A program made the translations under genes and the position numbers. DNA of 64,000 nucleotides from Escherichia coli (lineage in GTDB: Bacteria > Pseudomonadota > Gammaproteobacteria > Enterobacterales > Enterobacteriaceae), in the NCBI RefSeq assembly GCF_003991155.1, contig NZ_CP031293.1, one strand, 5' to 3'. The notes under the pieces are model-generated. The model saw nothing but the letters and a program-made list of their open reading frames with translations, was not told where the DNA came from and searched no databases. This document shows positions 32,435-63,088 of the stretch, piece after piece; position 1 is the first letter of the stretch; every line of letters begins with the position of its first letter.

Positions 32435-32509
32435 AATGCACTTATCCTCGAAAGACACGAGGTTACAGTATAATACTCAAGAAATTTGTCTATCCTGAAA
32501 TTGTTTAAA

Positions 32510-38734: not shown

Positions 38735-38749
38735 TAACGAGGTGAGAGG

Positions 38750-39556: not shown

Positions 39557-40313
39557 TCTCGACTGGTTGTTCACAGAACTGCCGATGTCTGCACGGTTTC
39601 ATGCAGCCAGACGGGAGGGGTTTCGTGCTGTTGAAGGAATGTTTTTCTGTCAGCATTCTCTGGATATGCTGAGAATTGCGCAGCAAGAATCGGGAATGAG
39701 CGTGGTGCTGATGAATGCTCCGGCAGGTGACTGGCTACGAGGTGAGCGTGGCCTGGCTGCACTTCCTGGCCGCGATGATGAATACCTGAACAGTTTGCTC
39801 ATTGCCCGCCGATATGCAGGGACGCTGGGATGCAGGCAGGTTCATGTTATGGCGGGCCTTCGGGATCACTCTGTGACAGAAGATGAACAACTGGAGTTAC
39901 TGGTTAATCGCTTGTGCATAGCCTGCGATGTGCTGGCGGAAAAAGATATTACAGTATTAATCGAACCCCTGAATTCTGAAGATATGCCTGGCTATATTAT
40001 TAATAGCCTTCCTCGAGCAAAAGATATTATCCGGCGGGTTTCTCACCAAAATATTGGTTTGCAGTTTGATATTTATCATTGCCAGAAAATTCATGGTAAT
40101 GTCACCCAAAATATAGATAAATATTTATCAATAGTTAAGCATTTTCAGATTGCCTCTGTGCCTGGTCGCCACGAACCAGGTTCTGGTGAGCTAAATGATA
40201 CGTGGATATTAAATTTTATTAATCAAAAAAACTTCCAGGGCTGGATTGGCTGTGAGTATAAACCTTCCACACTGACAACCGAGTCATTACGCTGGATGAA
40301 ACCATATTTATAA
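39537..40313 (+). CDS. Hydroxypyruvate isomerase-family TIM-barrel protein (OtnI/YgbM-like)
   Basis: 258 aa, xylose-isomerase-like TIM barrel; overlaps regulator stop. Confidence 0.65.
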   Translation: MLKLAANLDWLFTELPMSARFHAARREGFRAVEGMFFCQHSLDMLRIAQQESGMSVVLMNAPAGDWLRGERGLAALPGRDDEYLNSLLIARRYAGTLGCRQVHVMAGLRDHSVTEDEQLELLVNRLCIACDVLAEKDITVLIEPLNSEDMPGYIINSLPRAKDIIRRVSHQNIGLQFDIYHCQKIHGNVTQNIDKYLSIVKHFQIASVPGRHEPGSGELNDTWILNFINQKNFQGWIGCEYKPSTLTTESLRWMKPYL

Positions 40314-40334
40314 AATCTTTTTCTGGAGGAAAAT

Positions 40335-41147
40335 ATGTCGGATACCGTCATAATTTCGTTGGCACCTGTGGCCGCAGACTGCACCAGAGTCATACCCGAA
40401 GAATTGGCGCAGGAAATTTTGGCTTGCGTTGAATATGGAGCAGCAATTGTTCATTTACACGTTCGTGATAAGCAAGGCAAGTTAACGCCAGATACAACCG
40501 ATTTCCAGTCAACCATTGATCTCGTCAGACATCAATCAGACTTAATTATTCAGGCTTCTACGGGCGGAGTCTCTGCCATGTCAATAGCCGAGCGTTGCGC
40601 GCCTCTGGACTGCCCTGGCGTTGAAATGGCGTCGCTGAATGTAGGGTCGGTGAACCTTGGTGATGCCGTCTACGCTAATCCAACACCGGATGTCGAATAT
40701 TGTTCACAGCAAATTACCGCGCGTAGTATTGTTCCTGAATTTGAAGTGTTTGAAATTGGAATGGTTAATAATATTTTAACCCTCAATGAAAAGATAAAAT
40801 TCAGAAACCCCATGTTATTTAATATTGTACTTGGTCATAGAGGAAGTTCTCCGGCGACAATAGATGCATTAATTGCGATGCGCAGTATGATCCCGCGAGA
40901 TGCATTATGGGGTATTACTCACTTTGGCAGAAAGAATTTTGATGTTATTGCTGCTGCGGTAGCTATGGGAGCTAGCGAGGTCAGAATTGGTTTTGAAGAT
41001 AGTTATTATTTAAGTGCAGAGGAGATGGCGGAACAAAATTATCAGCAAGTTAAAAAACTCGCCAGACTTATTCGTAGTATGGATAAACAAGTGGCCTCAC
41101 CGGAAATTGCCCGACGGATATTAAATATCCCAATCCGGCAGCAATGA
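40335..41147 (+). CDS. Beta-keto acid cleavage enzyme (BKACE/DUF849, 3-keto-5-aminohexanoate cleavage enzyme family)
   Basis: 270 aa; …AAIVHLHVRDKQGK… resembles the BKACE metal-binding motif. Confidence 0.6.
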   Translation: MSDTVIISLAPVAADCTRVIPEELAQEILACVEYGAAIVHLHVRDKQGKLTPDTTDFQSTIDLVRHQSDLIIQASTGGVSAMSIAERCAPLDCPGVEMASLNVGSVNLGDAVYANPTPDVEYCSQQITARSIVPEFEVFEIGMVNNILTLNEKIKFRNPMLFNIVLGHRGSSPATIDALIAMRSMIPRDALWGITHFGRKNFDVIAAAVAMGASEVRIGFEDSYYLSAEEMAEQNYQQVKKLARLIRSMDKQVASPEIARRILNIPIRQQ

Positions 41148-41168
41148 CGACAGACAGGACATTTTACT

Positions 41169-42479
41169 ATGACTATAACAACCCTAATACAAAAAGCAGG
41201 ACTTACAATCTGTATAGCTGGCGGTGTACTCGCGGCAACAGGCGGGTTGATGCAATCCGCTGTGCTCTGGCAACCTGGATTGGTGATGCTTACTGCAGGC
41301 TTTGCCCTCGGTGCTGGTTACTGGCCGATACTTCGAAGTTATCAATTCACGTTATGGATTATCGCAGGTTTCGTGGCTGCGATGACCTGGTCGATGGATT
41401 TGATTGTCTGGGGCGGGTTTAACATTACTCACAAATGGATCGTGTTTTTAGTCATTCAGGCAACGATGTTCAGTATGGGTACCAAACTGACGATTCAGGA
41501 TTTTATCGATGTTGCCAAAATGCCATGGGCGGTGTTTATTGGCACCTTCTGCCACTTTGTGATTATGCCGTTGCTGGGGCTAACCATTACGCTGTTATTT
41601 GATTTTCCGCCAGAAGTTGCGGTGGGGATCCTGCTCATAGGTGCCTGCCCTAGCGGTTTATCATCAACTGTTATGGTTTATATCGCTAACGCGAACCTCG
41701 CGCTGGCGGTATCAATCGCCGCAGTTTCTACGCTGGCAGCAACGGTTATGACGCCGTTGTGGGTAAATTTGCTGGCTGGCTCCATGATTGACATCCAACT
41801 TACCGCAATGGTTATGGACGTGGTGAAAATTGTCCTTATACCAATTGGTGCAGCAATTTTGCATGACTACCTGAAAACGTACGCTGGAGTTCGAGGTCGA
41901 CGAACCGTGCAGCTTCTCGCCGGGATCTGCGCCCTGTGGCTAATTTACATGAGCTCTGGTGGTTGGGACTATCTCTTTGACAACGCCAGTGCAGACGTAC
42001 AAATGTATGCCGTGGTACTGAACTTTGTCACGGGTGGCATTGTATGGGCGTTGTTCTATAACTGGCTGTACAGTCGCGTGGAAGGCATTCAAAAGATTAT
42101 GCCAACCATCTCTATGATTGGGATCATCTTCTTTACCACCACCGCTGCGGCAGCTGGTCGTGATAACCTGTTGCAGGTTGGTTTCCTGCTTTGTTTCGCC
42201 ATGTTGTTGCATAACCTTGGCGGTTTCCTGATTGGCTATCTGATGAGTCGCTGGATATTCCGCATGGACGAACAATCGTCCCGTACCGTAGCCTTTGAAG
42301 TGGGATTGCAAAACGGAGGTATGGCGTCAGGTCTGGCAGCGGCAATGGGCAAACTGGCTACAGTTGGCCTTGCCTCTGCAGTCATGACACCTCTCGGCAA
42401 TGTGAGTGGTTCGCTGTTGGCAAACTACTGGCGCAAAAAAGACGCTCGTAAAGCACAGACTGCGAATAAAGACAAATAG
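41169..42479 (+). CDS. BASS-fold (bile acid:Na+ symporter-like) membrane transporter
   Basis: 436-aa polytopic protein; …GACPSGLSSTVMVYIANANLALAVSIAAVSTLAA… resembles BASS crossover motifs. Confidence 0.6.
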   Translation: MTITTLIQKAGLTICIAGGVLAATGGLMQSAVLWQPGLVMLTAGFALGAGYWPILRSYQFTLWIIAGFVAAMTWSMDLIVWGGFNITHKWIVFLVIQATMFSMGTKLTIQDFIDVAKMPWAVFIGTFCHFVIMPLLGLTITLLFDFPPEVAVGILLIGACPSGLSSTVMVYIANANLALAVSIAAVSTLAATVMTPLWVNLLAGSMIDIQLTAMVMDVVKIVLIPIGAAILHDYLKTYAGVRGRRTVQLLAGICALWLIYMSSGGWDYLFDNASADVQMYAVVLNFVTGGIVWALFYNWLYSRVEGIQKIMPTISMIGIIFFTTTAAAAGRDNLLQVGFLLCFAMLLHNLGGFLIGYLMSRWIFRMDEQSSRTVAFEVGLQNGGMASGLAAAMGKLATVGLASAVMTPLGNVSGSLLANYWRKKDARKAQTANKDK

Positions 42480-42514
42480 TCTGCCTGTTGTAACCTTTCA
42501 AAAGGAAACTCAAT

Positions 42515-42934
42515 ATGACGACATTGACCCTGAAACAAGCATTGCTTGCAGTAGAGTATGCGCTTGATCTTGCAGTGCAACAATATGCTGGCCGTCCTTT
42601 AAGTGTGGCAGTATGCGATGTTAATGGTGAATTGCTGAGCTTTGCCCGCATGGATAGAGCCAAACTGTTAACTATTGAATTAACGCAGCGTAAAGCACGA
42701 ACCAGTAGTCGTCTGGGCTGTACGACAGCAGCATTCTTACAGCGTCTACAAAAAGAGCAACTTGATATCAGCTATTTTGGAGATCCCCGGTTTACCGCAT
42801 TACCAGGAGGGATCCCTATTCTGGTTAAAGGAAAATGCATTGGTGCTGTTGCTGTGGGGGGATTATCCGCACGAGAAGATCATGATGCGGCACAGGCTGT
42901 CGCAGATAAACTGCTTGAGGAGATGACCAAATGA
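42515..42934 (+). CDS. GlcG/HbpS-like protein (DUF336)
   Basis: 139 aa; …GGIPILVKGKCIGAVAVGG… typical of GlcG-like proteins. Confidence 0.65.
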   Translation: MTTLTLKQALLAVEYALDLAVQQYAGRPLSVAVCDVNGELLSFARMDRAKLLTIELTQRKARTSSRLGCTTAAFLQRLQKEQLDISYFGDPRFTALPGGIPILVKGKCIGAVAVGGLSAREDHDAAQAVADKLLEEMTK

Positions 42935-43581
42935 AAAAAATAGCCATGCTTCACACCAGTTCAGCCACGCTTGCGGTGATGCAACAACTGATAGGCGATA
43001 TCATGCCTGAGGCTGAAGTGATGCATCTGGTTGAGGAGTCTATGATTAAGCAGGTGATGAAAGCGGGCGGTGTTACGCCAGATATCGCCGCACGGATCGC
43101 TGATTACATACGGATCGCTGAAAAAGCCGACTGCGATATTTTCATTACCGCTTGTTCATCAATTGGTACTGCTGTCGAACAGTGTCAATTTATGACTTCA
43201 GTACAACTGGCACGGATTGACTGTGCGATGGTGGATGAAGCAATCAACAAAGGGGAACACATTGCTGTGCTGGCAACGGTGGCCACAACGCTGAAACCGA
43301 CGCTTGATTTTGTCCGGCGAAAAGTTCAGGAAAGTGGAAAACAGCGGATTATTACACCTGTTTTAATGGAAGAAGCCTTCCATGCGTTATTGAATGGTGA
43401 TATGGGAACGCATGACCGCATTGTGAGTGAAGGATTACAAAAGGCCTTTGGGCAGGCAGATGTTATTATGTTAGCGCAGGCATCGATGGCACGGGTGCTG
43501 CAAAATATGCCTGAGCCTCCGGTTCCGGTATTAACATCGCCAGAAAGCGGTATTCGCTGGTTGAAAACATTCGCGAGTTAA
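42931..43581 (+). CDS. Asp/Glu/hydantoin racemase-family enzyme
   Basis: 216 aa; start overlaps GlcG stop; conserved Cys-containing ACSS segment. Confidence 0.6.
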   Translation: MKKIAMLHTSSATLAVMQQLIGDIMPEAEVMHLVEESMIKQVMKAGGVTPDIAARIADYIRIAEKADCDIFITACSSIGTAVEQCQFMTSVQLARIDCAMVDEAINKGEHIAVLATVATTLKPTLDFVRRKVQESGKQRIITPVLMEEAFHALLNGDMGTHDRIVSEGLQKAFGQADVIMLAQASMARVLQNMPEPPVPVLTSPESGIRWLKTFAS

Positions 43582-47205: not shown

Positions 47206-47541
47206 ATGTTTAGAACAGAAGACATCATCGATGAGATAACCCAATGGATTGATTCAAATTTACATAAGCCGCTGAAGATAGAGGATGTTGCTGCGCGGGC
47301 AGGATACTCGAGGTGGCATCTTCAGCGGATTTTTGTGCAGGTGAGAGAAATTAGCCTTGGGAAGTACATAAGAGATACGAAACTTAGACTTGCAGCAAAA
47401 GATCTTATCGCGACTAATGAGCCAGTGATGGTTATCGCCTTTAAATATGGATTCGATTCACAACAAACTTTTACTCGGATTTTCTTTAAAAAATATAAAT
47501 TGCCACCATTGAAATATAGGGTAATGACTCCAACTTATTGA
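47206..47541 (+). CDS. MarA/SoxS-like small AraC-family regulator, C-terminus replaced by IS1 insertion
   Basis: 111-aa ORF with two HTH motifs; its last 7 codons lie inside IS1. Confidence 0.6.
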
Positions 47542-48038
47542 TAGTGTTTTATGTTCAGATAATGCCCGATGACTTTGTCATGCAGCTCCACCGATTTTGA
47601 AAACGACAGCGACTTCCGTCCCAGCCGTGCCAGGTGCTGCCTCAGATTCAGGTTATGCCGCTCAATTCGCTGCGTATATCGCTTGCTGATTACGTGCAGC
47701 TTTCCCTTCAGGCGGGATTCATACAGCGGCCAGCCATCCGTCATCCATATCACCACGTCAAAGGGTGACAGCAGGCTCATAAGACGCCCCAGCGTCGCCA
47801 TAGTGCGTTCACCGAATACGTGCGCAACAACCGTCTTCCGGAGCCTGTCATACGCGTAAAACAGCCAGCGCTGGCGCGATTTAGCCCCGACGTATCCCCA
47901 CTGTTCGTCCATTTCCGCGCAGACGATGACGTCACTGCCCGGCTGTATGCGCGAGGTTACCGACTGCGGCCTGAGTTTTTTAAATGGCGGAAAATCGTGT
48001 TGAGGCCAACGCCCATAATGCGGGCGGTTGCCCGGCAT
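47535..48038 (-). CDS. insB: IS1 transposase InsB
   Basis: 167 aa matching IS1 InsB. Confidence 0.9.
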
Positions 48039-48232
48039 CCAACGCCATTCATGGCCATATCAATGATTTTCTGGTGCGTACCGGGTTGAGAAGCGGTGTA
48101 AGTGAACTGCAGTTGCCATGTTTTACGGCAATGAGAGCAGAGATAGCGCTGATGTCCGGCGGTGCTTTTGCCGTTACGCACCACTCCGTCAGTAGCTGAA
48201 CAGGAGGGACAGCTGATAGAAACAGAAGCCAC
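47957..48232 (-). CDS. insA: IS1 InsA
   Basis: 91 aa matching IS1 InsA (zinc finger CPSC…CSHC). Confidence 0.9.
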
Positions 48233-48522
48233 TGGAGCACCTCAAAAACACCATCATACACTAAATCAGTAAGTTGGCAGCATCACCGAAATATAGAAAC
48301 GCGGAAAGGAGAAAAAAACTTCACCAGCCCATGTCTTAAGTTCTGTCAGTATGGCTACAGCCTGTTTGCTGAGTGGCACAAGGTGTGGTGTTCGAATCTT
48401 GGTTCCCCAATGAGAGTTCAGGCGGTGTGGGCAAATAAAAAAGAAAACATAAATAAAACCATCCGACCGTTGGTGGGGCTGGATGGTTATTCATTATTTC
48501 TATGTCACTGAACTTTCATTCA

Positions 48523-49704
48523 TCAGATCTGCTCAGAAAGTGAATCAATGTAGTCAGCATACCACTGCATCATTTCACGGCGACCATCCAGATACTGGGC
48601 ATGATTATAGGTACCTCTGATAGCGTTTTTATCCATATGAGCTAACTGCATTTCAATCCAGGCAGAATTAAAGCCCTGTTCGTGCAGAATTGTACTCATG
48701 GTGTGTCTGAAACCGTGCCCTGTGAGTCTTCCCTTATATCCTAGTAATTCAATGACTTGGTTTATGCTTTCCTTACTAATTGGTTTGCGAGGATCGTTCC
48801 TACCGATAAAGACCAGAGGATGATGTTTTGAGATTGGTTCAAGTTGCTTAAATAGCGCAATGACCTGCTCAGAGAGCGGCACAATATGAGGTCGCTTCAT
48901 CTTCATTACTTCTGCCGGGATCTCCCATAATTTTGTCTCAAAATCGATATCCTCCCAGCGTGCGAAACGCAATTCTTGAGTTCGTACACCAGTTAGCATA
49001 ATGATTTGAGTGGCTGTCTTAGTGATAATACTTCCGGTATAACCCGCCAGATCATTGAGGAAGTGGGGAAGTTCATTAGCAGTAAGAAAGGGAAAATGTA
49101 CTTTTTTCGGTGTAGCTAAAGCACTGGCAAGATCGGGAGCAGGGTTGTAGTTAGCCCGACCAGTAACAATTGCATAGCGGAACACCTCTCCACAGCGCTG
49201 GCGGACCTTACGCATTTTCTCCAGAGCTCCACGTTTTTCCATTTTACGCAATGCTTCCAGTAACTCCATTGGTTTGATTTCAGCAATAGGGCGTTTGCCA
49301 ATATAGGGAAAAATATCTTTTTCAAAGGTATCAATGATTTCATCACGATAGCGTAATGACCACCGATCGGCTTTTGACTGATGCCATTCTCGAGCAACGG
49401 CCTCAAATGTGTTTTTCAAACTCATTTGCAGCGCGATTTTTTCTTCTTTTTTTGTCTCACCCGGATCGCATCCTGCAGCGAGGATTTTCCTAGCTTCACT
49501 GCGTTTTTCGCGAGCGTCGGCTAGAGTTACATCGGGGTATACGCCAATAGAAAGCATCTTTTCTTTGCCAGCAAAGCGGTACTTCATACGCCAATATTTA
49601 GAACCATTAGTGTTAATGAGTAGATACATACCGCCACCATCAGACAGCTTATAGGGCTTTTCTTTTGGTTTTGCGGTTTTCACTTTAATATCAGTTAACG
49701 CCAT
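48523..49704 (-). CDS. P4-type tyrosine integrase (site-specific recombinase)
   Basis: 393 aa; catalytic HGFRHT and C-terminal Tyr region; immediately adjacent to selC. Confidence 0.9.
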   Translation of the reverse strand: MALTDIKVKTAKPKEKPYKLSDGGGMYLLINTNGSKYWRMKYRFAGKEKMLSIGVYPDVTLADAREKRSEARKILAAGCDPGETKKEEKIALQMSLKNTFEAVAREWHQSKADRWSLRYRDEIIDTFEKDIFPYIGKRPIAEIKPMELLEALRKMEKRGALEKMRKVRQRCGEVFRYAIVTGRANYNPAPDLASALATPKKVHFPFLTANELPHFLNDLAGYTGSIITKTATQIIMLTGVRTQELRFARWEDIDFETKLWEIPAEVMKMKRPHIVPLSEQVIALFKQLEPISKHHPLVFIGRNDPRKPISKESINQVIELLGYKGRLTGHGFRHTMSTILHEQGFNSAWIEMQLAHMDKNAIRGTYNHAQYLDGRREMMQWYADYIDSLSEQI

Positions 49705-49998: not shown

Positions 49999-50023
49999 TT
50001 GGCGGAAGATCACAGGAGTCGAA
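49999..50023. repeat. attL core: 25-bp direct repeat overlapping the 3' end of selC
   Basis: Identical to 4873..4897. Confidence 0.8.
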
Positions 50024-50094
50024 CCTGCCCGGGACCGCTGGCGGCCCCAACTGGATTTGAAGTCCAGCCGCCTCACCGGAGACGACGATCTTCC
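50000..50094 (-). tRNA. selC: tRNA-Sec (selenocysteine tRNA)
   Basis: Reverse complement matches the 95-nt E. coli selC sequence GGAAGATCGTCGTCTCCGGTGAGGCGGCTGGACTTCAAATCCAGTTGGGGCCGCCAGCGGTCCCGGGCAGGTTCGACTCCTGTGATCTTCCGCCA. Confidence 0.95.
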
Positions 50095-51778: not shown

Positions 51779-54097
51779 ATGAAAATTAGCGACGGAAACT
51801 GGTTGATTCAACCTGGCCTCAATTTGATTCACCCGCTTCAGGTGTTCGAGGTTGAACAGCAGGGTAATGAAATGGTGGTCTATGCTGCCCCTCGTGATGT
51901 GCGTGAACGTACCTGGCAGCTTGATACGCCTTTATTTACGCTGCGCTTTTTCTCCCCACAGGAAGGTATTGTCGGTGTACGGATTGAGCATTTTCAGGGG
52001 GCGCTGAATAACGGTCCTCATTATCCGCTCAATATTTTGCAGGACGTGAAGGTCACAATCGAAAACACAGAACGTTACGCTGAGTTTAAAAGTGGCAACT
52101 TAAGCGCGCGTGTCAGCAAAGGTGAGTTCTGGTCACTGGATTTTCTGCGCAACGGCGAACGTATTACCGGTAGTCAGGTGAAAAATAACGGCTACGTGCA
52201 GGACACGAATAATCAACGAAATTATATGTTTGAGCGGCTGGATCTTGGCGTTGGCGAAACAGTTTACGGTCTGGGAGAGCGCTTTACTGCCCTGGTGCGC
52301 AATGGCCAGACGGTAGAGACCTGGAACCGGGACGGCGGCACAAGTACTGAACAGGCGTATAAAAATATTCCGTTCTATATGACTAACCGTGGTTATGGGG
52401 TACTGGTCAATCATCCTCAATGCGTCTCTTTTGAAGTGGGATCGGAGAAAGTCTCCAAAGTGCAGTTCAGCGTTGAGAGTGAATATCTCGAATACTTTGT
52501 TATCGACGGCCCGACGCCGAAAGCGGTACTTGATAGTTATACCCGTTTTACTGGTCGTCCGGCGCTGCCGCCCGCGTGGTCCTTCGGCCTGTGGCTAACC
52601 ACTTCATTTACCACCAACTACGACGAAGCGACGGTAAACAGCTTTATCGATGGTATGGCGGAACGCAATCTGCCGCTGCATGTTTTCCACTTTGACTGTT
52701 TCTGGATGAAAGCCTTCCAGTGGTGCGATTTTGAGTGGGACCCGCTGACTTTCCCGGACCCGGAAGGGATGATCCGCCGCCTGAAAGCGAAAGGGCTAAA
52801 AATCTGCGTCTGGATTAACCCCTATATCGGGCAAAAATCCCCTGTCTTTAAAGAGTTACAAGAGAAAGGTTATTTACTCAAACGCCCGGACGGTTCGCTG
52901 TGGCAGTGGGATAAATGGCAGCCAGGTCTGGCGATTTATGACTTTACCAATCCGGATGCCTGCAAATGGTACGCCGACAAACTGAAAGGTCTGGTCGCGA
53001 TGGGCGTTGATTGCTTTAAGACCGACTTTGGCGAACGTATTCCAACCGATGTTCAATGGTTTGATGGTTCCGATCCGCAGAAAATGCATAACCATTATGC
53101 GTACATCTACAACGAACTGGTGTGGAACGTGCTCAAGGAAACCGTTGGCGAGGAAGAAGCCGTCTTGTTTGCCCGCTCGGCCTCCGTCGGTGCGCAGAAA
53201 TTCCCGGTACATTGGGGTGGCGACTGTTACGCTAACTACGAATCAATGGCGGAAAGCCTGCGCGGTGGTTTGTCTATTGGCCTTTCTGGTTTTGGCTTCT
53301 GGAGCCACGATATCGGCGGCTTTGAGAATACCGCTCCGGCGCACGTTTACAAACGCTGGTGCGCGTTTGGTTTGCTCTCCAGCCATAGCCGTTTACACGG
53401 CAGCAAATCTTATCGTGTGCCGTGGGCCTATGATGATGAGTCCTGTGATGTGGTGCGCTTCTTCACGCAACTGAAATGCCGCATGATGCCGTATCTGTAT
53501 CGTGAAGCTGCACGTGCAAACGCCCGGGGTACCCCGATGATGCGGGCCATGATGATGGAGTTCCCGGACGATCCGGCTTGTGATTACCTTGACCGTCAAT
53601 ACATGTTAGGCGATAACGTGATGGTTGCTCCGGTGTTCACTGAAGCGGGCGATGTGCAGTTCTACCTGCCGGAAGGTCGCTGGACACACCTGTGGCACAA
53701 CGATGAACTCGACGGTAGTCGCTGGCATAAACAGCAGCACGGCTTCCTGAGTCTGCCCGTTTATGTGCGTGATAACACCCTACTGGCGCTGGGCAACAAC
53801 GAGCAACGTCCCGATTACGCGTGGCACGAAGGCACGGCATTCCAGCTCTTTAATCTGCAAGACGGGCATGAAGCCATCTGTGAAGTGCCCGCTGCCGATG
53901 GTTCCGTTCTTTTCACCCTGAAAGCGGCGCGTACTAGCAACACAATTACTGTGACTGGTGCGGGCGTGGCGAAGAACTGGACGCTGTGCTTGCGCAATGT
54001 TGTGAAAGTAAATGGTCTGCAAGGCGGTTCGCAGGCTGAAAGTGAGCAGGGGCTGGTGGTGACGCCTCAAGGGAATGCGCTGACAATTACGTTGTAA
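51779..54097 (+). CDS. yicI: Alpha-xylosidase YicI (GH31)
   Basis: 772 aa; matches E. coli YicI. Confidence 0.9.
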
Positions 54098-54111
54098 TCT
54101 ATTGAAGAATG

Positions 54112-54142
54112 CCGGATACGAATGGTTTTGTGTCGTATCCGG
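54112..54142 (+). terminator. Hairpin downstream of yicI (possible terminator; no clear T-tract)
   Basis: Stem CCGGATACGA/TCGTATCCGG with 11-nt loop. Confidence 0.3.
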
Positions 54143-54391
54143 TAAATAATCTCACATCTGGTAATAAATATTTCTTCCATCGTATTTGCGAGCATGATCA
54201 CGATTATTCATCACGAAAATGTGATCTGTGCTGAAAAATATCCCTTAACCGCCTTGCTTTGTTTTATCACTGTCCGGATTACGGACATATTTTAGTATTG
54301 TTGTGAAATTATTCTGCTTTATATTTACCCTCAGAGATGGCAACTGAAGCTCTTCCTCATAGGGCTTCTTAATCTGTGATAAGGGTAAAAA

Positions 54392-55945
54392 ATGCAAATG
54401 ATTACCTCGCGACAAAACAGATTATTACGATTCCTTTTACCTCGAAGGGAATATACGACTATTGTTACGATTGCCGGCTATTTAAATGTTTCGGAAAAAA
54501 CCATTCAACGTGATTTACGTTTACTTGAGCAATGGCTGGGGCAATGGAGAATAAATGTTGAGAAGCGTGCTGGCGCGGGTGTGATGTTAAGCGCGGAGAA
54601 TATTGCTGATTTGCTGCATCTTGATCATTTGTTGGGAGCAGAATGTGAAGAGATTGATGGTGTAATGAATAATGCCAGGCGCGTTAAAATAGCGTCGCAG
54701 TTATTAAGTGAAACACCGAATGAAACGTCGATCAGTAAATTGTCAGAACGCTACTTTATCAGCGGAGCCTCTATTGTTAATGACCTGAGAGTAATTGAGT
54801 CCTGGCTTGCGCCGTTGGGGTTATCATTGATCCGCAGCCCAAGTGGTACGCATATTGAAGGTAGTGAAGGGCAAGTCCGACAGGCAATGGCATTACTGAT
54901 TAACGGCATTATTAACCATAATGAGCCGCAAGGTGTCGTGTATTCACGTCTGGATCCCGGAAGTTATAAAGCATTAGTCCATTATTTTGGAGAAGAAGAG
55001 GTGTTATTTGTCCAGTCATTGTTACTGGATATGGAAAATGAATTAAGTTGGTCTTTGGGAGAGCCTTATTACGTTAACATTTTTACTCACATCCTTATTA
55101 TGATGTATCGCAACACGCACGGGAATGCGTTATCCAGAGAAGAAGATCAAACCAGGCAATATGATGAAAATATCTTTAATGTTGCCAGTCAGATGATTCA
55201 TAAGATAGAACAACGAATTGCACATACATTGCCCGATGATGAAGTCTGGTTTATTTATCAATATATCATTTCATCAGGTGTGGCGATTGATGGACAAAAA
55301 GATGTGAGCATTATTTCACATATGCAGGCCAGCAATGAAGCGCGTCTGATTACCTGGCGTTTAATTACGGTATTCAGTGACATCGTGGACTGCGATTTTA
55401 GTGAAGACAGCGCATTATATGATGGCTTGTTGGTTCATATTAAGCCGCTGATTAACCGACTAAATTATCGCATTCATATCCGTAATCCATTGCTGGAAGA
55501 TATTAAAGCAGAATTAGCGGATGTCTGGCGGTTGACGCAATATGTGGTGAATCAGGTATTTAAAACCTGGGGTGAGAATGCAGTGAGCGAGGATGAAGTG
55601 GGTTACCTGACCGTTCATTTTCAGGCTGCGATGGAGCGGCAAATTGCCCGTAAACGCGTATTACTGGTCTGTTCAACCGGAATCGGAACTTCGCATCTAC
55701 TGAAAAGCCGTATTCTGCGAGCGTTTCCTGAATGGACGATTGTTGATGTTATTTCAGCAGCGAATTTATCACAGGTTTTGCCTGACAATATCGAACTGAT
55801 TATTTCGACCATTAATTTGCCTACAGTCACTATGCCGGTCGCTTATGTTACCGCTTTTTTTAATGATGCCGATATTAAGCGGGTCACTGAAATGGTGATT
55901 ACGGAAAAATTACATCATGCGACGTCTCGGGTCGTTGAAATTTAA
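54392..55945 (+). CDS. PRD-containing transcriptional activator (MtlR/LicR/Mga-type) with C-terminal PTS EIIB-like domain; frz-type operon
   Basis: 517 aa; N-terminal HTH, PRD-like central region, C-terminal …VLLVCSTGIGTSHLL… EIIB-like phosphorylation motif. Confidence 0.7.
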   Translation: MQMITSRQNRLLRFLLPRREYTTIVTIAGYLNVSEKTIQRDLRLLEQWLGQWRINVEKRAGAGVMLSAENIADLLHLDHLLGAECEEIDGVMNNARRVKIASQLLSETPNETSISKLSERYFISGASIVNDLRVIESWLAPLGLSLIRSPSGTHIEGSEGQVRQAMALLINGIINHNEPQGVVYSRLDPGSYKALVHYFGEEEVLFVQSLLLDMENELSWSLGEPYYVNIFTHILIMMYRNTHGNALSREEDQTRQYDENIFNVASQMIHKIEQRIAHTLPDDEVWFIYQYIISSGVAIDGQKDVSIISHMQASNEARLITWRLITVFSDIVDCDFSEDSALYDGLLVHIKPLINRLNYRIHIRNPLLEDIKAELADVWRLTQYVVNQVFKTWGENAVSEDEVGYLTVHFQAAMERQIARKRVLLVCSTGIGTSHLLKSRILRAFPEWTIVDVISAANLSQVLPDNIELIISTINLPTVTMPVAYVTAFFNDADIKRVTEMVITEKLHHATSRVVEI

Positions 55946-55971
55946 TGTCAGAATTTTATGAGGTATGACGA

Positions 55972-56442
55972 ATGGACATAACAAAAATCCTGAATACGAA
56001 TCGCGTTATTTTAGATATGCAAGCGACGAATAAAGCGGAGGCGATTGAAGAATTAACTAATCTTCTCAAAAAAGATGGTGCGATCGATTGTCGGGAAACC
56101 TTTATTAAAGATGTCTGGCAGCGCGAAGCGGAAGGCTCGACTGGTTTTGAAAATCATATTGCGATCCCGCATGGTAAATCTTCTGCGGTAATTAATACTA
56201 CGCTGGCAATTGGCCGTACCCGCCAGGATATTCCCTGGGAAACGCTGGATGGCAGTAGCGTGCGCTGTATTATTTTATTTGCGGTACGTCTTGAAGATCA
56301 AAATACCACTCATATCCGTTTACTTTCCCAGGTCGCGGGCGCGCTGGCGGATGATGACATCATAGAACAATTGTTAGTTGAGACGAGTCCGCAAAAAATC
56401 ATTGATCTCTTTAGTCAGTATGCACAATCCGATGTCTGCTAA
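55972..56442 (+). CDS. PTS EIIA component, fructose/mannitol type
   Basis: 156 aa; …HIAIPHGK… active-site His motif. Confidence 0.75.
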   Translation: MDITKILNTNRVILDMQATNKAEAIEELTNLLKKDGAIDCRETFIKDVWQREAEGSTGFENHIAIPHGKSSAVINTTLAIGRTRQDIPWETLDGSSVRCIILFAVRLEDQNTTHIRLLSQVAGALADDDIIEQLLVETSPQKIIDLFSQYAQSDVC

Positions 56443-56459
56443 ATAACAGGGAGTATGTC

Positions 56460-56774
56460 ATGAATATTGTCTGTGTTGCCGCCTGTACGGCGGGTATTGC
56501 TCATACCTATATTGCTCGTGAAAAGTTAATCAAAGGAGCAAAAGCTCTGGGCCATACCATTAAAGTTGAAACCCAGGGAACCATTGGTACAGAAAATGAA
56601 TTACAGGCGGCAGATATCTCTGCTGCTGACGTCGTGATTCTTGCTGTAGATGTGAAAATAAAAGGAGAAGAACGCTTCACCAATAAACGTATTGTGCGAG
56701 TAAAGACAGAGATCGTCATTAAATCGCCCGTTCAATTTCTTGAAAAGGTCGAAAAATCACTGGGAAACAAATGA
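56460..56774 (+). CDS. PTS EIIB component, fructose type
   Basis: 104 aa; N-terminal …IVCVAACTAGIAHTY… Cys phosphorylation motif. Confidence 0.75.
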   Translation: MNIVCVAACTAGIAHTYIAREKLIKGAKALGHTIKVETQGTIGTENELQAADISAADVVILAVDVKIKGEERFTNKRIVRVKTEIVIKSPVQFLEKVEKSLGNK

Positions 56775-56798
56775 TCCTTATACTGGAGGGATCTTAAT

Positions 56799-57890
56799 AT
56801 GAAAGACAATAAAATTCCGGTTTCACAGGAAATTAAAAAACATTTATTAACCGGCATCTCGTGGATGATACCCCTTATTGTGGCCGCCGGGATATGTATT
56901 GCGTTGGGGCAAGTTCTTGGCGGTACAGATGTTGGTGAAAAAACAGGAACAATCCCGTGGATGCTTAATCAGATTGGCGGCTGGGGAATGGGGCTGATTG
57001 TGCCGCTGATTAGCGCGGCAATTGCCTATTCTATTGCCGATCGTCCCGGATTTGCCCCGGGTCTGATTGTCGGCTTTCTCTGTGGGCAAATCCATACCGG
57101 ATTTATTGGCGGTATGTTGGGTGGTTTCCTGGTGGGCTACACCATTTTGCTACTTAAACGCTATATCCGCCTGCCGCAGTCGATGCAAGGACTCATGCCA
57201 ATCATGGTGTTGCCGGTATTAAGCACCATTATCGGTGGGCTGTTAATGATGACGCTGATTGGTAAACCCATCGCCTGGTTACAAGAAGCACTGATTCATT
57301 TGCTCGAGTCGATGCAGGGCGGATCGCGCTTCCTGATGGGGGCCATACTTGGCGCGATGGCAACCTTCGATTTCGGTGGTCCGGTCAACAAAACCATGTC
57401 GCTGTTTTCCGATGGCTTGCTGGTCAGTGGCGTCTACGGACCAGAAGCCGTGAAATTTGTCGGCTCAATCATCCCTCCGTTTGGCATCACACTTTCGTTC
57501 TTACTGACACGCCATAAATACACCCGTGCGGAGCGCGAGGCGCTGAAAGCCGCGTTTCCGATGGGGATCTGCATGATCACTGAAGGAGTCATTCCGATCG
57601 CCGCGCGTGACCTGCTGCGAGTAGTGGGATCTTGTGTGGTGGCATCGGCGGTCGCGGGCGGCTTAATCATGGTGTGGGGCGTGGAGAGTCCGGTTCCGCA
57701 TGGCGGCATGTTTGTTGTGCCTCTGTTCACCCATCCTCTGCTGTTTTGCCTGGCGCTGGGTATAGGCACGGTGATTTGTGGCGTGATGCTTTCACTCTGG
57801 AAGAAACCGGTAACGGAACGCGACGAAGAGTTTGACGAACTGAGCGATCAAAAGCTGAAAGATGAAGAGATCACTTTCACCCTCGAATAA
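56799..57890 (+). CDS. PTS EIIC component, fructose-like
   Basis: 363-aa polytopic membrane protein. Confidence 0.75.
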   Translation: MKDNKIPVSQEIKKHLLTGISWMIPLIVAAGICIALGQVLGGTDVGEKTGTIPWMLNQIGGWGMGLIVPLISAAIAYSIADRPGFAPGLIVGFLCGQIHTGFIGGMLGGFLVGYTILLLKRYIRLPQSMQGLMPIMVLPVLSTIIGGLLMMTLIGKPIAWLQEALIHLLESMQGGSRFLMGAILGAMATFDFGGPVNKTMSLFSDGLLVSGVYGPEAVKFVGSIIPPFGITLSFLLTRHKYTRAEREALKAAFPMGICMITEGVIPIAARDLLRVVGSCVVASAVAGGLIMVWGVESPVPHGGMFVVPLFTHPLLFCLALGIGTVICGVMLSLWKKPVTERDEEFDELSDQKLKDEEITFTLE

Positions 57891-57901
57891 CCGGAGGCCC
57901 T

Positions 57902-58753
57902 ATGTTTGCCGATATGAAAAGTATGGTGATGAAAGCCTGGCATGAACATTACGCCTTACTGGCGATCAACTGTATGAATCTGGAAAGTGCTCACGCAGCT
58001 ATCCGCGTGGCGGAGAAGAATCGCGCTCCGATCATTCTCAATCTCTATCAGGGGCATCTGGCGCATTTTCCAGCACCCGTCGCGGCGGCAGTGGTTAAAA
58101 CGCTCGCGGAATCTGCCTCAGTACCGGTCGCTCTGGCGCTTGATCATGGCAAAAATCCGGACTGTATTCGTCAGGCGTTTCGTGCTGGTTTCAGCGGATT
58201 AATGATTGATGCTTCTGCTTTTCCCCTGGAGGAAAACGTGCGCCAGACCAGGGCGGTGGTGGAACTCGCCGCCAGCGTGCAGCTCTGCGTGGAAGGCGAA
58301 CTGGGCCATCTGGCAGATGCGCCGCGTTACGACCAGGCCGCCAATGCAGACCTGATGACGCAACCCACTGATGTGGAACCGTTTATCGCGCAGACAGGCA
58401 TTGATCTACTGGCCGTCTCGGTAGGCACGGCGCACGGCATGTACGCGCCTGGTGTTGTACCTGCTATTGATTTTCAGCGTCTGGCGGAGATTTTCCACTG
58501 CTCGAGCGTGCCTCTGGCATTACATGGCGGTAGCGGTACGCCGTTCGATCAGCTCCAGCTCTGTACGACGCTGGGGGTAGCAAAAATCAACGTGGGGGCG
58601 GCCATTTTTGAACGGGGGAAATCCGCGCTCCTGCATACCCTCTGTCACGATATATCCATTGAACTGGTGGACGCGCTGAAAGCTATGGAACTGGCCTTCG
58701 AAGAAGCGATTACACCGTATTTACAGGCGAGCGGCTCTATCGGCAAAGCCTGA
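57902..58753 (+). CDS. Class II ketose-bisphosphate aldolase (GatY/KbaY/FbaA family)
   Basis: 283 aa; …LDHG…, …GELG…, …TAHG… motifs. Confidence 0.7.
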   Translation: MFADMKSMVMKAWHEHYALLAINCMNLESAHAAIRVAEKNRAPIILNLYQGHLAHFPAPVAAAVVKTLAESASVPVALALDHGKNPDCIRQAFRAGFSGLMIDASAFPLEENVRQTRAVVELAASVQLCVEGELGHLADAPRYDQAANADLMTQPTDVEPFIAQTGIDLLAVSVGTAHGMYAPGVVPAIDFQRLAEIFHCSSVPLALHGGSGTPFDQLQLCTTLGVAKINVGAAIFERGKSALLHTLCHDISIELVDALKAMELAFEEAITPYLQASGSIGKA

Positions 58754-58833
58754 TTCATTTTCTGTCATGGCCTTTATGCCAGTGCAATAACGCACCGGCA
58801 GGGCGGACTACACGCTGAAACTGGAGATTTAAC

Positions 58834-59694
58834 ATGTTAGTTTCGATGAAAGAATTACTGCAACCTACCCGCCAGCACGGCTTTGCCATTGGCGCATTTA
58901 ATGTGGCGGATAACTGTTTCCTTCGCGCAGTCGTGGATGAAGCAGAAGCGACAAATACTCCGGCGATTATTGCCATCCATCCCAGCGAACATGATTTTGT
59001 GGGCGATGCCTTTTTCGCTCACGTTCGCGAAATTACCCAGCGTAGTCCGGTCCCGTTTGTACTGCACCTCGATCATGGTGCCTCTGTAGAGCATGTTTTG
59101 CGTGCGATTCGCTGCGGATTTACCTCAGTAATGATCGACGGTTCGCTGCTGCCGTATGAAGAAAACGTGGCGCTGACCGCAGAAGTGGTTCGCCTCGCTC
59201 ACGCGGTTGGAGTGTCGGTTGAGGGTGAACTGGGAACCATCGGACAAACAGGAACGTCGGTAGAAGGTGGTGTTTCACAAGTGACCTACACAGATCCGGC
59301 GCAGGCCGCCGATTTTATTGCTCGTACAGGTGCCGACACTCTGGCTGTGGCGATTGGTACAGCACATGGCATCTATCCAAAAGGGATGCAGCCGAAGCTG
59401 CAAATGGACATTTTGCGCGACATTGCCGGACGTATTGATATTCCGCTGGTGCTACACGGTGGTTCGGCAAACCCGGACGCGGAGATTGCTGAATCAGTTA
59501 CGCTCGGCGTCGGCAAAATCAATATCTCCAGCGATATGAAATACGCCTATTTCCAGAAAGTGCGTGAAATTCTCGCTAAAGAGAGCTGGTGGGACCCGAA
59601 CGTCATCTATCCGGATGCGATTAACGCGGCGCGGGAAGTCATTCGCCACAAAATGAAACTGTTCGGTTCGCTCGGTAAAGCATCACTGTACTAA
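58834..59694 (+). CDS. Class II ketose-bisphosphate aldolase (second paralog)
   Basis: 286 aa; …LHLDHG…, …EGELGTIG…, …TAHGIYP… motifs. Confidence 0.75.
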   Translation: MLVSMKELLQPTRQHGFAIGAFNVADNCFLRAVVDEAEATNTPAIIAIHPSEHDFVGDAFFAHVREITQRSPVPFVLHLDHGASVEHVLRAIRCGFTSVMIDGSLLPYEENVALTAEVVRLAHAVGVSVEGELGTIGQTGTSVEGGVSQVTYTDPAQAADFIARTGADTLAVAIGTAHGIYPKGMQPKLQMDILRDIAGRIDIPLVLHGGSANPDAEIAESVTLGVGKINISSDMKYAYFQKVREILAKESWWDPNVIYPDAINAAREVIRHKMKLFGSLGKASLY

Positions 59695-59741
59695 GCCAGA
59701 AGGGCGGGGTGACCCGCCTTTTACGCAACAAGGAACGAGAA

Positions 59742-60674
59742 ATGCACTATCTGGGGTTGGATATTGGTGGGACCAAAATCGCCGCCGTCGTCATGGATGC
59801 GCATGGCTGGGAGATTCGCCGTTACCGCTGCCCGACGCAAAAGTCGACATATCAACAATTTGTCTCATGTGTTGTGGCGCTTATCGAGCAGATTAGGCGG
59901 GACGTTCAACGACCGATGCTGACAGGGATCGCCTTACCCGGCAGTATCTCGCCACTCACTGGCCTGATTAAAAACGCGAATATTCAGGTGATTAACGGTC
60001 ATGCGTTACAGGCTGATTTGCAGCAATTGCTTGGGCAACCGGTGGTGATAGCCAATGATGGTAACTGTTTCGCGCTATCAGAAGCTTGCGACGGTGCCGG
60101 GCAAGATTATGACGTGGTATTTGGTATTACGCTTGGTACGGGCTGCGGCGGTGGCATTGCCATCAAGCAACGACCGTTTATAGGGGCCTGGGGAAATGCT
60201 GCCGAATGCGGTCATATCACGTTGCCAGGCTATACGGAGCAGGAAGATGGTCCATCAGTCAGTTGCTATTGCGGCAAACACAACTGCGTGGAGTCGTTTG
60301 TTTCCGGCAGCGGTTTTAGTGAACGCTATCAACAGATGACTGGTAACTTGCTCACTCCTGCGGCGATTGTCACCCTGGCACAACGTGGTGATGCTGGTGC
60401 CATGCAGCAGGTGGCACGTTTTCGCCAACAGCTTGCCCGCACGCTGGCAACCATCGTTAATGTTGTTGACCCTGGCGTGATTGTGATCGGCGGCGGGCTT
60501 TCGAATGTGGAACTGCTTATCACCGATCTGAACGCAGAAGTTGCTCCACTGGTTTTCACCGATCAATTCACCACTCCCATTGTAAAAGCACAGCACGGCG
60601 ACAGTAGCGGAATGCGTGGCGCTGCCTGGCTTGCTATGCGCAACGGAGAAGCCAATGAAACGTTCACAAATTAA
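59742..60674 (+). CDS. ROK-family sugar kinase
   Basis: ORF 59709..60674 trimmed to MHYLGLDIGGTK; ROK zinc motif CYCGKHNCVE. Confidence 0.75.
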   Translation: MHYLGLDIGGTKIAAVVMDAHGWEIRRYRCPTQKSTYQQFVSCVVALIEQIRRDVQRPMLTGIALPGSISPLTGLIKNANIQVINGHALQADLQQLLGQPVVIANDGNCFALSEACDGAGQDYDVVFGITLGTGCGGGIAIKQRPFIGAWGNAAECGHITLPGYTEQEDGPSVSCYCGKHNCVESFVSGSGFSERYQQMTGNLLTPAAIVTLAQRGDAGAMQQVARFRQQLARTLATIVNVVDPGVIVIGGGLSNVELLITDLNAEVAPLVFTDQFTTPIVKAQHGDSSGMRGAAWLAMRNGEANETFTN

Positions 60675-61335
60675 TTATGTTATTGATAAAGCACATGCCA
60701 TTGCGCAGACCTTCCGCGTTTGTTTGCCAGAGTTCGCCTATTTTACGGTGGATGACTGGCTGCAGCGGGAACGGGATAACTGGCAAGAAGTGGTCGACTT
60801 ACAGCTCGGTTGGGATATCACCGATTTTGGTCGTGGTGATTTCAACCAAACGGGACTAACACTGCTAACGATGCGCAACGGCGCGCTGGGGTCGGCGGCA
60901 TATCCAAAACCGTATGCTGAGAAAATGTTGCAGATCCAACAAGATCAGCAGACTCCCTGGCATTTTCACACCCACAAAATGGAAGATATCCTCAATCGGG
61001 GCGGTGGAGACTTATGCATGCAGTTGGCCTGGGCCAACGAAGCCAATCTCTGTGATGATCAACGAGTCATTACCGTGAGTGTTGATGGTCAGCGGCGTAC
61101 CATGAAACCTGGTGAAACGCTGGTGCTAAAGCCGGGGCAGGGCATTTGCCTGCCGCCGCGTCTGTATCATCGCTTCTGGGCGGAAAAAGCGTTTGTTCTC
61201 GGCTGGGAAATTTCGATGGTAAATGATGACCAACACGATAATTATTTTCTTGAGCCGGGAGGACGTTTTCCGGCGATAGAAGAAGATGAACCGGTGAAAT
61301 GGTTATTGTGCAGTGAGTATGGAATTTTGCGCTAA
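60655..61335 (+). CDS. Cupin-superfamily sugar isomerase-like protein (D-lyxose/mannose isomerase type)
   Basis: ORF 60616..61335 trimmed to Met14 after a GGAGAAG ribosome-binding site; …WHFH.H…E… cupin metal-site pattern. Confidence 0.6.
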   Translation: MKRSQINYVIDKAHAIAQTFRVCLPEFAYFTVDDWLQRERDNWQEVVDLQLGWDITDFGRGDFNQTGLTLLTMRNGALGSAAYPKPYAEKMLQIQQDQQTPWHFHTHKMEDILNRGGGDLCMQLAWANEANLCDDQRVITVSVDGQRRTMKPGETLVLKPGQGICLPPRLYHRFWAEKAFVLGWEISMVNDDQHDNYFLEPGGRFPAIEEDEPVKWLLCSEYGILR

Positions 61336-61344
61336 TAACGGGGA

Positions 61345-61380
61345 ACGCTAGCGCTGATATCCGCTAGCGTCCTTATTTTT
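61345..61380 (+). terminator. Rho-independent terminator between the frz-type operon and yicH
   Basis: Stem ACGCTAGCG/CGCTAGCGT followed by CCTTATTTTT. Confidence 0.6.
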
Positions 61381-63088
61381 ACTGCACCGGCTCCGTCGAC
61401 GTAACTTCACCACTGGAAACGACGCCCGCATTTATGGTTTGAGTCACTTGCTGCTTTGCGGCATTCACGGCATGCAATTGCCCGCTAACCGTAGGTTTCA
61501 GCGGGACATTGGCCTGAATATCGCCACTGGCGGTAAGCTGAATATTGCCGTCGCCAGTCAACGGTAATTCAGGCCATCCCCAATGTTGCAAAATATTCAC
61601 CGGCACACCGCGTCCATTCAGGCTGATATGGGTCTGACGTTGTGGCGTTTGTGAAACACTGGCGGTGGCTTCCAGAATGCCTTTTTCAGTAAATGCACTC
61701 AGTTCGCTGATATTCACCGTGCTGCTGTTGGCGGTCAGCGCCAGCGATGGGCGACGAACATCAACACGATTGAATGTCGCGGCGGCGGCATTCAGATTCG
61801 CCGAACCACTCCAGACGCCCCATTTATGATCGGTAACCAGCGTCAGGTTGGCACCGTAACCATCGAGCGCGGTGAGCTGCCACGGGAAGTCAGGGTCGAT
61901 ATCAATGATCAGATTGCGGCTGGCGCTAAATCTCTTCAGTTGCAGGCTGTTTAACCAACCGGGTGTCGTTTCCATCCACAACTGTTGCCAGTTTTTTGGC
62001 AAGGTATATTCCAGTCCGGCAATTGCCGCATCATCGAGGATCAACATTTTCCCGTCACGCAACCAGTTCCCTGACGTTCTGACCATGCCCCCTTCCCAGC
62101 GGCTGGTGAACTGGCGCAGTGCTACGCCCTGCGGGGAAAATTCCGCGTTTATAATCGGGTCAAATAAATGCAGCGAACCATAAATGAACTCGCTGGCGTT
62201 CATCGACAGTTTGCCTTCCTGTGTCTGCCAGTCATCTTTACTGAAGGTCATGTTGCGCAAGCTGAGATCGAGGTCGGTCACCGCCCAGTCCGGACCTTGC
62301 AAACGAGCATCGATCACTTCCAGGCGACCAATCTGCAACGACGGGACAGAGCGTAATGGCGCAAAGAAGTCGGTTAGCGATTTTTCGCTTTGTAGACGGA
62401 TATCCGCCATGCGCAGATTTTCCACTTGCCAGCTGCCGTCGGCGTTACGCTGCGCGTTTCCGGTTAATGTCCCGCGGGCGATGTCGGCACCCAGGTTAGT
62501 CAGCGTAACGCGATCGTTATCAATACTGCCTTCAATCAGTACATTGGTGGCAGGAACATCATTGAGCGAAAGCGATCCGGCACTAAACTGAATCTGCGCC
62601 TTCGTACCCAGCACTTTACCGGCTTCTGGTGACCACGGAACCACGCCGCCATTTACCCGCTGCGCGCTCAGTTTCCATTCGCTATTCGGGCTATTAAACG
62701 CCATATTACGCAGTTGCAGACGATCGGCTTTGAACGGTAGCGGCGCGGTCTGGTCGGTGAGATTCAGCGTCCCGTTTTCCAGCAGGATGGTATCGACATG
62801 GCGTGGTTCGGTCAGTTGCCGACTGCTTAGCGCAATGTCGACACTTTTTGCCACCAGGGTCGCGGGCTGGCCATCACGACCAAACGTGACGTTCTCCAGC
62901 ACGATATGAGATGGCGCGGAAAAACGGTGATCCATCGCCCCGAAGGCCAGATGATAGTCGCTATTCTCGGAAACCCATGCGCTGATATGTTCTGCTCCCC
63001 AGCGAGTTTGCAGAAGAAAATAGAGGCCAGCGATCACCACTAACAGAGCGATGAGAATGTAGAGAAGCAGCTTCCCAATAAATTTCAT
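61379..63088 (-). CDS. yicH: AsmA-family protein YicH
   Basis: ORF 61379..63112 trimmed to MKFIGKLLLYIL (569 aa); matches E. coli YicH. Confidence 0.85.
   Translation of the reverse strand: MKFIGKLLLYILIALLVVIAGLYFLLQTRWGAEHISAWVSENSDYHLAFGAMDHRFSAPSHIVLENVTFGRDGQPATLVAKSVDIALSSRQLTEPRHVDTILLENGTLNLTDQTAPLPFKADRLQLRNMAFNSPNSEWKLSAQRVNGGVVPWSPEAGKVLGTKAQIQFSAGSLSLNDVPATNVLIEGSIDNDRVTLTNLGADIARGTLTGNAQRNADGSWQVENLRMADIRLQSEKSLTDFFAPLRSVPSLQIGRLEVIDARLQGPDWAVTDLDLSLRNMTFSKDDWQTQEGKLSMNASEFIYGSLHLFDPIINAEFSPQGVALRQFTSRWEGGMVRTSGNWLRDGKMLILDDAAIAGLEYTLPKNWQQLWMETTPGWLNSLQLKRFSASRNLIIDIDPDFPWQLTALDGYGANLTLVTDHKWGVWSGSANLNAAAATFNRVDVRRPSLALTANSSTVNISELSAFTEKGILEATASVSQTPQRQTHISLNGRGVPVNILQHWGWPELPLTGDGNIQLTASGDIQANVPLKPTVSGQLHAVNAAKQQVTQTINAGVVSSGEVTSTEPVQ

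Follow-up and report, generated by a model that had tools for sequence, protein, structure and literature searches.

The eight-gene frz segment between yicI and yicH of Escherichia coli: distribution, history and predicted function

Between the core genes yicI and yicH, some Escherichia coli genomes carry a block of genes that others lack, which raises the question of where this block came from and what it does. We addressed this in a 64,000-nt stretch of E. coli DNA (contig NZ_CP031293.1), hereafter called the window, whose positions give all coordinates below. Eight intact open reading frames run there on the same strand (54392-61335, +), flanked by yicI and yicH; in K-12 MG1655, just 52 bp separate these two genes. 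Is the segment a recently inserted islet or an old locus since lost by most of the species, and what would it encode?

The segment was compared with the yicI-yicH interval of BEN2908, an avian extraintestinal pathogenic E. coli (ExPEC) strain in which Rouquet et al. reportedly described the frz operon in 2009. The two intervals aligned without gaps over 7281 bp at 99.37% identity (46 substitutions), and the eight proteins of the window were 98.9-100% identical to those of BEN2908, with 8 amino-acid changes. Both intervals occupy the same position and have the same RefSeq list of eight genes in the same order; BEN2908 is a phylogroup B2 host, whereas the window most likely derives from a phylogroup F host resembling sequence type (ST) 457. 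The BEN2908 interval has been named the frz operon, genomic region 27 (PMC12928451, citing Rouquet et al. 2009). Because of its near-identity to an interval labeled frz in that paper, the segment can be identified by sequence as the frz operon of E. coli, already known since 2009, as the initial annotation had proposed from gene composition. Taken together, the evidence set out below makes it highly probable that this segment, frz, encodes a sugar pathway built on a phosphotransferase system (PTS) and aldolases, and that it is an old, lineage-marking locus of the Enterobacteriaceae.

Citing papers, in the passages that summarize frz, attribute to it transcription as one operon, fitness under oxygen or nutrient restriction, including late stationary phase at low oxygen, and an effect on promoter orientation that biases the switch of type 1 fimbriae to ON. 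According to similar passages, frz (orf4) serves as a routine PCR marker in the typing of avian pathogenic E. coli.

Distribution and history of the segment

We searched 5426 complete E. coli genomes and found the frz segment in 1606 of them (about 30%, which is not a population frequency since the sample is skewed to clinical isolates), near full length in 1601. A contiguous empty site of the K-12 type was present in 3816. Because carriers and empty sites together make up 5422 of the 5426, the yicI-yicH site is essentially two-state. The segment is not universal in the species and K-12 is empty, in keeping with what the initial annotation had presumed. Carriers are diverse and include LF82, Nissle 1917, the asymptomatic bacteriuria strain 83972, a porcine enterotoxigenic E. 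coli isolate, avian isolates and wastewater strains. Strain HS-02 (NZ_CP172818.1, human stool; locus 3795-4060) shows that frz can be lost: of the regulator gene it has just the initial ~266 bp, abutting a slightly shortened yicH, a remnant left by natural deletion of frz.

Absence from K-12 and from 70% of the genomes could mean that frz is a recently acquired, ExPEC-specific islet inserted horizontally between yicI and yicH. Base composition speaks for this, with ~42% GC in the first three genes (regulator, EIIA and EIIB, 54392-56774) versus 50-56% in the other five, and 36.7% in the DNA upstream, under the E. coli average. So does the link of frz to virulent avian strains made in passages of citing papers. 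However, the hallmarks of a mobile island are missing: no integrase, transposase, insertion sequence (IS) element, tRNA or bracketing repeats were found within or around 54098-61378, and a search for repeats at the boundaries returned short chance matches only, none bracketing the segment. Commensal and probiotic strains also carry frz, and its divergence within E. coli reaches 1.6%, about the level of core genes.

Comparison across genera bears more directly on the age of the locus. Our species scan took one genome per species and used a regulator profile, which can miss relatives; the resulting 65 loci were scored for the eight genes and their flanks. Homologues of the first aldolase (aldolase 1) are spread over the Enterobacterales. 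Klebsiella aerogenes has all eight genes in its yicI-yicH interval, together with RpiR, GH4 and EIICB genes that frz lacks. The cluster stands directly upstream of yicJ-yicI-yicH in Salmonella Ituri, and a frz-like cluster abuts yicH in metagenomic enterobacteria. It also adjoins yicJ-yicI and/or yicH in ~13 Citrobacter species, Phytobacter, Kosakonia, Superficieibacter, Mangrovibacter, K. michiganensis, K. grimontii and Escherichia sp. MOD1-EC7003. Clusters of other genera share a six-gene core with frz (regulator, EIIA, EIIB, EIIC and two aldolases) at 52-96% protein identity. Those of the Erwiniaceae and Pectobacteriaceae (Pantoea, Erwinia, Pectobacterium and Brenneria) consist of this core at another genome location, outside the yicI/yicH neighbourhood, unlike frz. 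The genes for the ROK kinase and the cupin vary: both are present in Escherichia and Klebsiella, only the cupin in most Citrobacter, only the ROK kinase in Mangrovibacter and Gibbsiella, and neither in Pantoea.

Where the neighbourhood is shared, frz is as diverged as its flanks. Nucleotide identity to the window was 77% for frz and 79-81% for the flanks in Citrobacter sp. FP75, 78% and 73-79% in Phytobacter ursingii, and 94.6% and 95.8-97.3% in Escherichia sp. MOD1-EC7003; protein identities gave the same pattern. The GC dip of the first three genes is kept in the orthologues of Citrobacter, Phytobacter and Klebsiella, and is absent in Pantoea. Because it is present in these other genera too, the dip is, on this comparison, a long-standing property of the cluster rather than evidence that the genes were recently put together as a mosaic.

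Since the segment lacks mobility features, keeps its neighbourhood across genera and diverges as its flanks do, we favour the view that frz has long been part of the yicI/yicH neighbourhood in Enterobacteriaceae and was lost by most E. coli, over that of a recent insertion. The word islet, with which the initial annotation had implied an insertion, fits this evidence poorly, and a recent ExPEC-specific acquisition appears quite improbable.

Two observations on the history of frz nevertheless weigh against our account. Between the window and B2 strains (BEN2908, LF82), frz differs by only 0.6%, versus 2.1-2.9% for yicI/yicH, with mostly synonymous differences. That frz is less diverged than its flanks between F and B2 would also suit a recent islet; it suggests that the segment was exchanged between phylogroups by recombination after their split. 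In addition, neither E. albertii nor E. fergusonii nor the representative of E. coli yielded a locus in the species scan, whose regulator-motif search can miss relatives, so that pure vertical descent with loss would need several independent losses.

The yicI flank has a peculiarity of its own. At its 3′ end, a 231-bp patch (53780-54010) is ~10% different from B2 strains, K-12 and MOD1-EC7003, whereas nearby yicI sequence differs by only ~2%. The same patch is ~96% like that of an ST405 strain and of WP3-W18-ESBL-08. Its appearance is that of DNA imported by recombination long ago, with an end near the frz junction.

Operon layout and predicted function

On the left, frz is flanked by yicI (51779-54097, +), a GH31 alpha-xylosidase gene whose product scores 1426.8 bits against NF007940, and on the right by yicH (61379-63088, -), an AsmA family gene (PF05170, 2.7e-23) convergent with frz; both names are those of RefSeq. 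A terminator-like hairpin of yicI at 54111-54142 is common to K-12 and the window. In the alignment with K-12, AT-rich DNA specific to frz starts from ~54136, after the shared hairpin, and the DNA missing from K-12 spans ~54136 to 61378 (7.24 kb). The intergenic DNA 5′ of the regulator gene (54098-54391, +; 36.7% GC) is the presumed promoter site; in this 294-bp region no sigma-54 match was seen by eye. At the other end lies the operon's strong intrinsic terminator (61345-61380, +) with a stem of 9 pairs (6 GC) and an 8-nt loop; the stem-loop itself occupies 61345-61370 and is followed by the tail CCTTATTTTT, which abuts the yicH stop codon. Gene starts were read from the RefSeq annotation of an identical genome with the same eight genes. 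The ROK kinase gene starts there at 59742 (ATG) and not at the longest-frame GTG at 59709, and the cupin gene at 60655 and not at the GTG at 60616; with these starts, the two genes overlap by 20 nt. The initial annotation thus described the locus well: all eight genes between yicI and yicH are intact with the domains it listed, and the clean terminator is there, with its T-rich tail. Its span of 54392-61380 covers the gene set correctly and runs slightly too far, since position 61380 falls within the yicH stop codon.

The first gene (54392-55945, +) encodes a regulator composed, in Pfam, of HTH_11 (2.4e-14), Mga (4e-13), two PRD (1.9e-30) and a weak EIIB(Gat)-like domain (PTS_IIB, 4.8e-05, residues 422-498). 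Its DNA-binding HTH/Mga domains followed by two PRDs are those of a PRD activator. His233, His349, His409 and Cys427 are invariant across six orthologues. In MtlR/LicR/ManR- and Mga/AtxA-type activators, the N-terminal HTH/Mga part, the two PRDs and the EIIB(Gat)-like domain with its conserved cysteine are alike. MtlR and LicR have in addition a C-terminal EIIA-like domain, which the frz regulator lacks: Pfam gave no match to an EIIA(Mtl/Fru)-like domain, and the protein ends at residue 517, after the EIIB-like domain. The regulator resembles AtxA/AcpB, whereas LicT and GlcT match across the PRDs only, far below cutoff.

RefSeq names this product a BglG family antiterminator. Neither Pfam nor NCBIfam matched a CAT RNA-binding domain in the regulator, which rules that name out. 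Because the N-terminus is HTH_11/Mga and no CAT domain is present, the domain architecture is that of a transcriptional activator, not an antiterminator.

Three PTS subunits follow. EIIA (55972-56442, +), of the fructose/mannitol type, matches PF00359 (PTS_EIIA_2; 3.8e-35) and TIGR00848 (127 bits, cutoff 103.5) and carries His67 in an IAIPHG motif. EIIB (56460-56774, +), of the fructose type, matches PF02302 (4.4e-19) and TIGR00829 (100 bits, cutoff 76.85) and carries Cys9 in an AACTAGIAHT motif. We take the motifs of His67 and Cys9 to be the active-site (phosphorylation) motifs. The EIIC permease (56799-57890, +) belongs to the fructose subfamily (TIGR01427, 311.6 bits, cutoff 157.55). All three subunits therefore pass fructose-subfamily domain models, and RefSeq names them and the downstream enzymes accordingly (PTS fructose transporter subunit IIB/IIC; class II fructose-bisphosphate aldolase), as would be expected if frz were a redundant fructose PTS with fructose-1,6-bisphosphate aldolases. 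The specific models argue otherwise. The FruA and FruB equivalogs fail by a wide margin (EIIC scores 297 against a cutoff of 793 for NF007984; NF008319 gives 56 against 302), and the aldolases reach only 210-279 bits where the fructose-bisphosphate aldolase models require 343-423. There is no 1-phosphofructokinase in the operon, and E. coli already has fruBKA and fbaA. We give a redundant fructose system very little credence.

The two class II aldolases that follow are each distant from characterized models. Aldolase 1 (57902-58753, +), a divergent zinc enzyme, matches PF01116 (3.1e-75) and falls under every specific NCBIfam cutoff, its best specific model giving 210 bits against 343. Its LDHG, GTAHG and LHGGSG motifs line up with their counterparts in AgaY (PDB 1GVF). 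The idea that aldolase 1 is a catalytically dead partner was rejected, as these three motifs are intact. Aldolase 2 (58834-59694, +; PF01116, 7.9e-91) passes NF006042 (525.9 bits, cutoff 405), which bears only the name 'hypothetical protein', placing it in an uncharacterized subfamily; it also passes the general ketose-bisphosphate aldolase subfamily TIGR00167 (259.5 versus 215.6). Its HLDHG, GTAHG and LHGGS motifs align to PDB 1RV8. In both enzymes we take the Asp-His and His motifs of these types to be the zinc-ligand sites of class II aldolases. Neither reaches an equivalog cutoff for fructose- or tagatose-bisphosphate aldolase.

Both aldolases match the structures of AgaY (PDB 1GVF) and KbaY at E values of 1e-40 to 1e-50, which is what a tagatose/galactitol-type pathway with GatY/KbaY-like tagatose-1,6-bisphosphate aldolases would predict. 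Such a pathway nonetheless seems very improbable, as the tagatose-bisphosphate aldolase models score 181-251 bits against cutoffs of 383-443, and the operon lacks a GatZ/KbaZ partner, a PfkB tagatose-phosphate kinase and a galactitol-type enzyme II. Another relative is YdjI of E. coli K-12 (PDB 6OFU), which shares the PF01116 fold family (E values of 1e-38 with aldolase 1 and 4e-49 with aldolase 2) and is, by sequence comparison, only a distant paralogue. YdjI acts on a ketose 1-phosphate and is thus a precedent for direct cleavage of a monophosphorylated ketose of the kind that a PTS delivers.

The last two genes encode a sugar kinase and an isomerase. The ROK-family kinase (59742-60674, +) is Mak/NagK-like, with matches to PF00480 (6.9e-74) and to the NagK structure in the PDB (5.6e-55), and scores 316.9 bits with the fructokinase model NF007108 (cutoff 443). 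The cupin aldose-ketose isomerase (60655-61335, +) belongs to the D-lyxose/D-mannose isomerase family (PF07385, 5.5e-87) and aligns full-length to PDB 3KMH, a sugar isomerase of E. coli O157 (4.1e-64). That enzyme is EcSI/Z5688, known as a D-lyxose/D-mannose isomerase from the O157:H7 serotype (PDB 3KMH, 3MPB), and the putative frz isomerase resembles it in PF07385 and in its full-length match. The frz cupin is nevertheless a paralogue and not the same gene, and its 271.7 bits with NF051472 fall below the equivalog cutoff of 350.

From these domains a pathway can be proposed. Phosphoryl groups would pass from phosphoenolpyruvate through enzyme I and HPr to EIIA (His67) and EIIB (Cys9), and EIIC would import a ketose-like sugar, phosphorylated on entry. 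The paired zinc aldolases would split the phosphorylated ketose into dihydroxyacetone phosphate and an aldehyde, acting either on the ketose-1-phosphate directly or on a bisphosphate made by a housekeeping kinase. As an optional branch, the cupin isomerase and the ROK kinase could turn a free mannose- or lyxose-type aldose into a ketose and then add a phosphate to it. The PRD activator would switch the operon on, probably through PTS-dependent phosphorylation of its PRD histidines and Cys427.

A different possibility is that frz acts mainly as a sensor, its PTS and PRD protein reporting sugar or energy status and acting on other genes, the fim switch for example, while carrying little flux through catabolism. 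The effects described in passages of the citing papers, fim promoter orientation and late stationary survival at low oxygen, are indeed of a regulatory or fitness kind, and no growth substrate was reported in the literature searched. Four enzyme genes with intact catalytic motifs have nevertheless been retained, and in the surveyed Enterobacterales clusters the two aldolases are invariably paired and accompanied by the PTS genes, a conserved unit that argues for working catabolism. We therefore regard a mainly sensory role as rather unlikely.

The catabolic account has difficulties of its own. Its steps are read from domain families, and all four frz enzymes score below the equivalog cutoffs of NCBIfam. 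A PfkB-type kinase that would form a 1,6-bisphosphate is missing from the operon, which leaves the aldolase substrate uncertain; for the same reason, the aldolases may cut a 1-phosphate directly. A sigma-70 consensus scan of the 294-bp region upstream of the regulator found no promoter. A full-text literature search, which did not cover the original 2009 description, found no report of the frz substrate or of the combination of lyxose isomerase, ROK kinase, aldolases and PTS. A more specific version of our account would have frz ancestral and deleted in the A/B1-type majority, its core being an uncharacterized pathway of direct ketose 1-phosphate cleavage for a rare sugar, and the ROK kinase and cupin an add-on that salvages the released aldose; this version we put forward only tentatively, as a rather unlikely one.

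The selC island and the left edge of the window

The remainder of the window was read alongside strain 2016C-3878 (NZ_CP029747.1; rectal swab, USA), from which the window differs by 1 substitution and one extra 768-bp IS1. Most of the window's left part is a mosaic island of ~45.7 kb (~4240-49999) between setC and tRNA-Sec (selC; 50000-50094), with an integrase gene at 48523-49704. Its cargo consists of metabolic modules, not virulence genes of the type found in the locus of enterocyte effacement. They include a cluster with an otnK-like 3-oxo-tetronate kinase gene (36783-43581) and a group for pseudouridine kinase, glycosidase and nucleoside transport (19125-22349). The island also contains a toxin-antitoxin pair, CbtA/YeeU, and debris of IS66, IS3 and IS110.

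The island further carries a second tryptophanase operon, tnaC-tnaA-tnaB (29383-32467), with 94.6% DNA identity to K-12 tnaCAB. Since the proxy genome NZ_CP029747.1 keeps its native tnaCAB as well, with mnmE and mdtL on either side, the strain has two diverged tna copies. The extra IS1 (47520-48287) is a complete 768-bp element: it ends in the inverted repeats typical of IS1, is bordered by a duplicated 9-bp target (GAAATATAG), and sits between the island's integrase gene and a helix-turn-helix gene. Its absence from the otherwise identical NZ_CP029747.1 marks it as a very recent insertion.

The window opens (1-391) within a gene for a type III secretion chaperone of the SycD/LcrH type. In NZ_CP029747.1 this gene precedes a SipB-like translocator gene, just beyond the window. 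The chaperone gene is a type III secretion remnant beside yicS and nlpA.

Host lineage and significance

In 2016C-3878, synteny places aceK next to iclR and rrf next to yjaB, so that arpA and yjaA are absent, while chuA is present. A literature search on this strain returned nothing. In the Clermont quadruplex scheme, an arpA-negative, chuA-positive, yjaA-negative profile denotes phylogroup F when TspE4.C2 is negative; with TspE4.C2 present, it would denote phylogroup G or a rare B2 type. Some 38 genomes, among them CREC-544 (ST457), share both a 100% identical frz and an identical aceK-iclR junction. Because arpA and yjaA are absent, chuA is present and an ST457 strain has an identical frz, the sequence data most likely place the window's host in an ST457-like phylogroup F lineage. 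A caveat on the other side is that the phylogroup was read from the proxy genome 2016C-3878 with three of the four markers, arpA, chuA and yjaA. ST457 has been described in print as an emerging high-risk ExPEC clone of phylogroup F. The ExPEC-like background suggested by the initial annotation is thus upheld in the sense of lineage (F, ST457), although frz does not track pathotype, being found also in Nissle 1917, 83972 and LF82.

The wider distribution agrees with a lineage pattern. Across the genomes searched, 1316 were arpA-negative, and frz was present at an identity of at least 99% in 1324 and of 95-99% in 283; these totals, compared as such and not genome by genome, fit such a pattern. 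WCHEC4533, one of the more divergent frz carriers, belongs to an ST405 set; we take ST405 to be phylogroup D. Phylogroups B2 and F and part of D retain the frz operon, and about 70% of sequenced E. coli lack it; it therefore marks lineage, not pathotype.

As a consequence, frz can be used as a lineage indicator, which in this case points to an ST457-like phylogroup F strain, a multidrug-resistant ExPEC clone, as the most likely source of the window. If frz is indeed old and has been lost by most E. coli, its association with ExPEC would reflect phylogenetic hitch-hiking, not selection for virulence.

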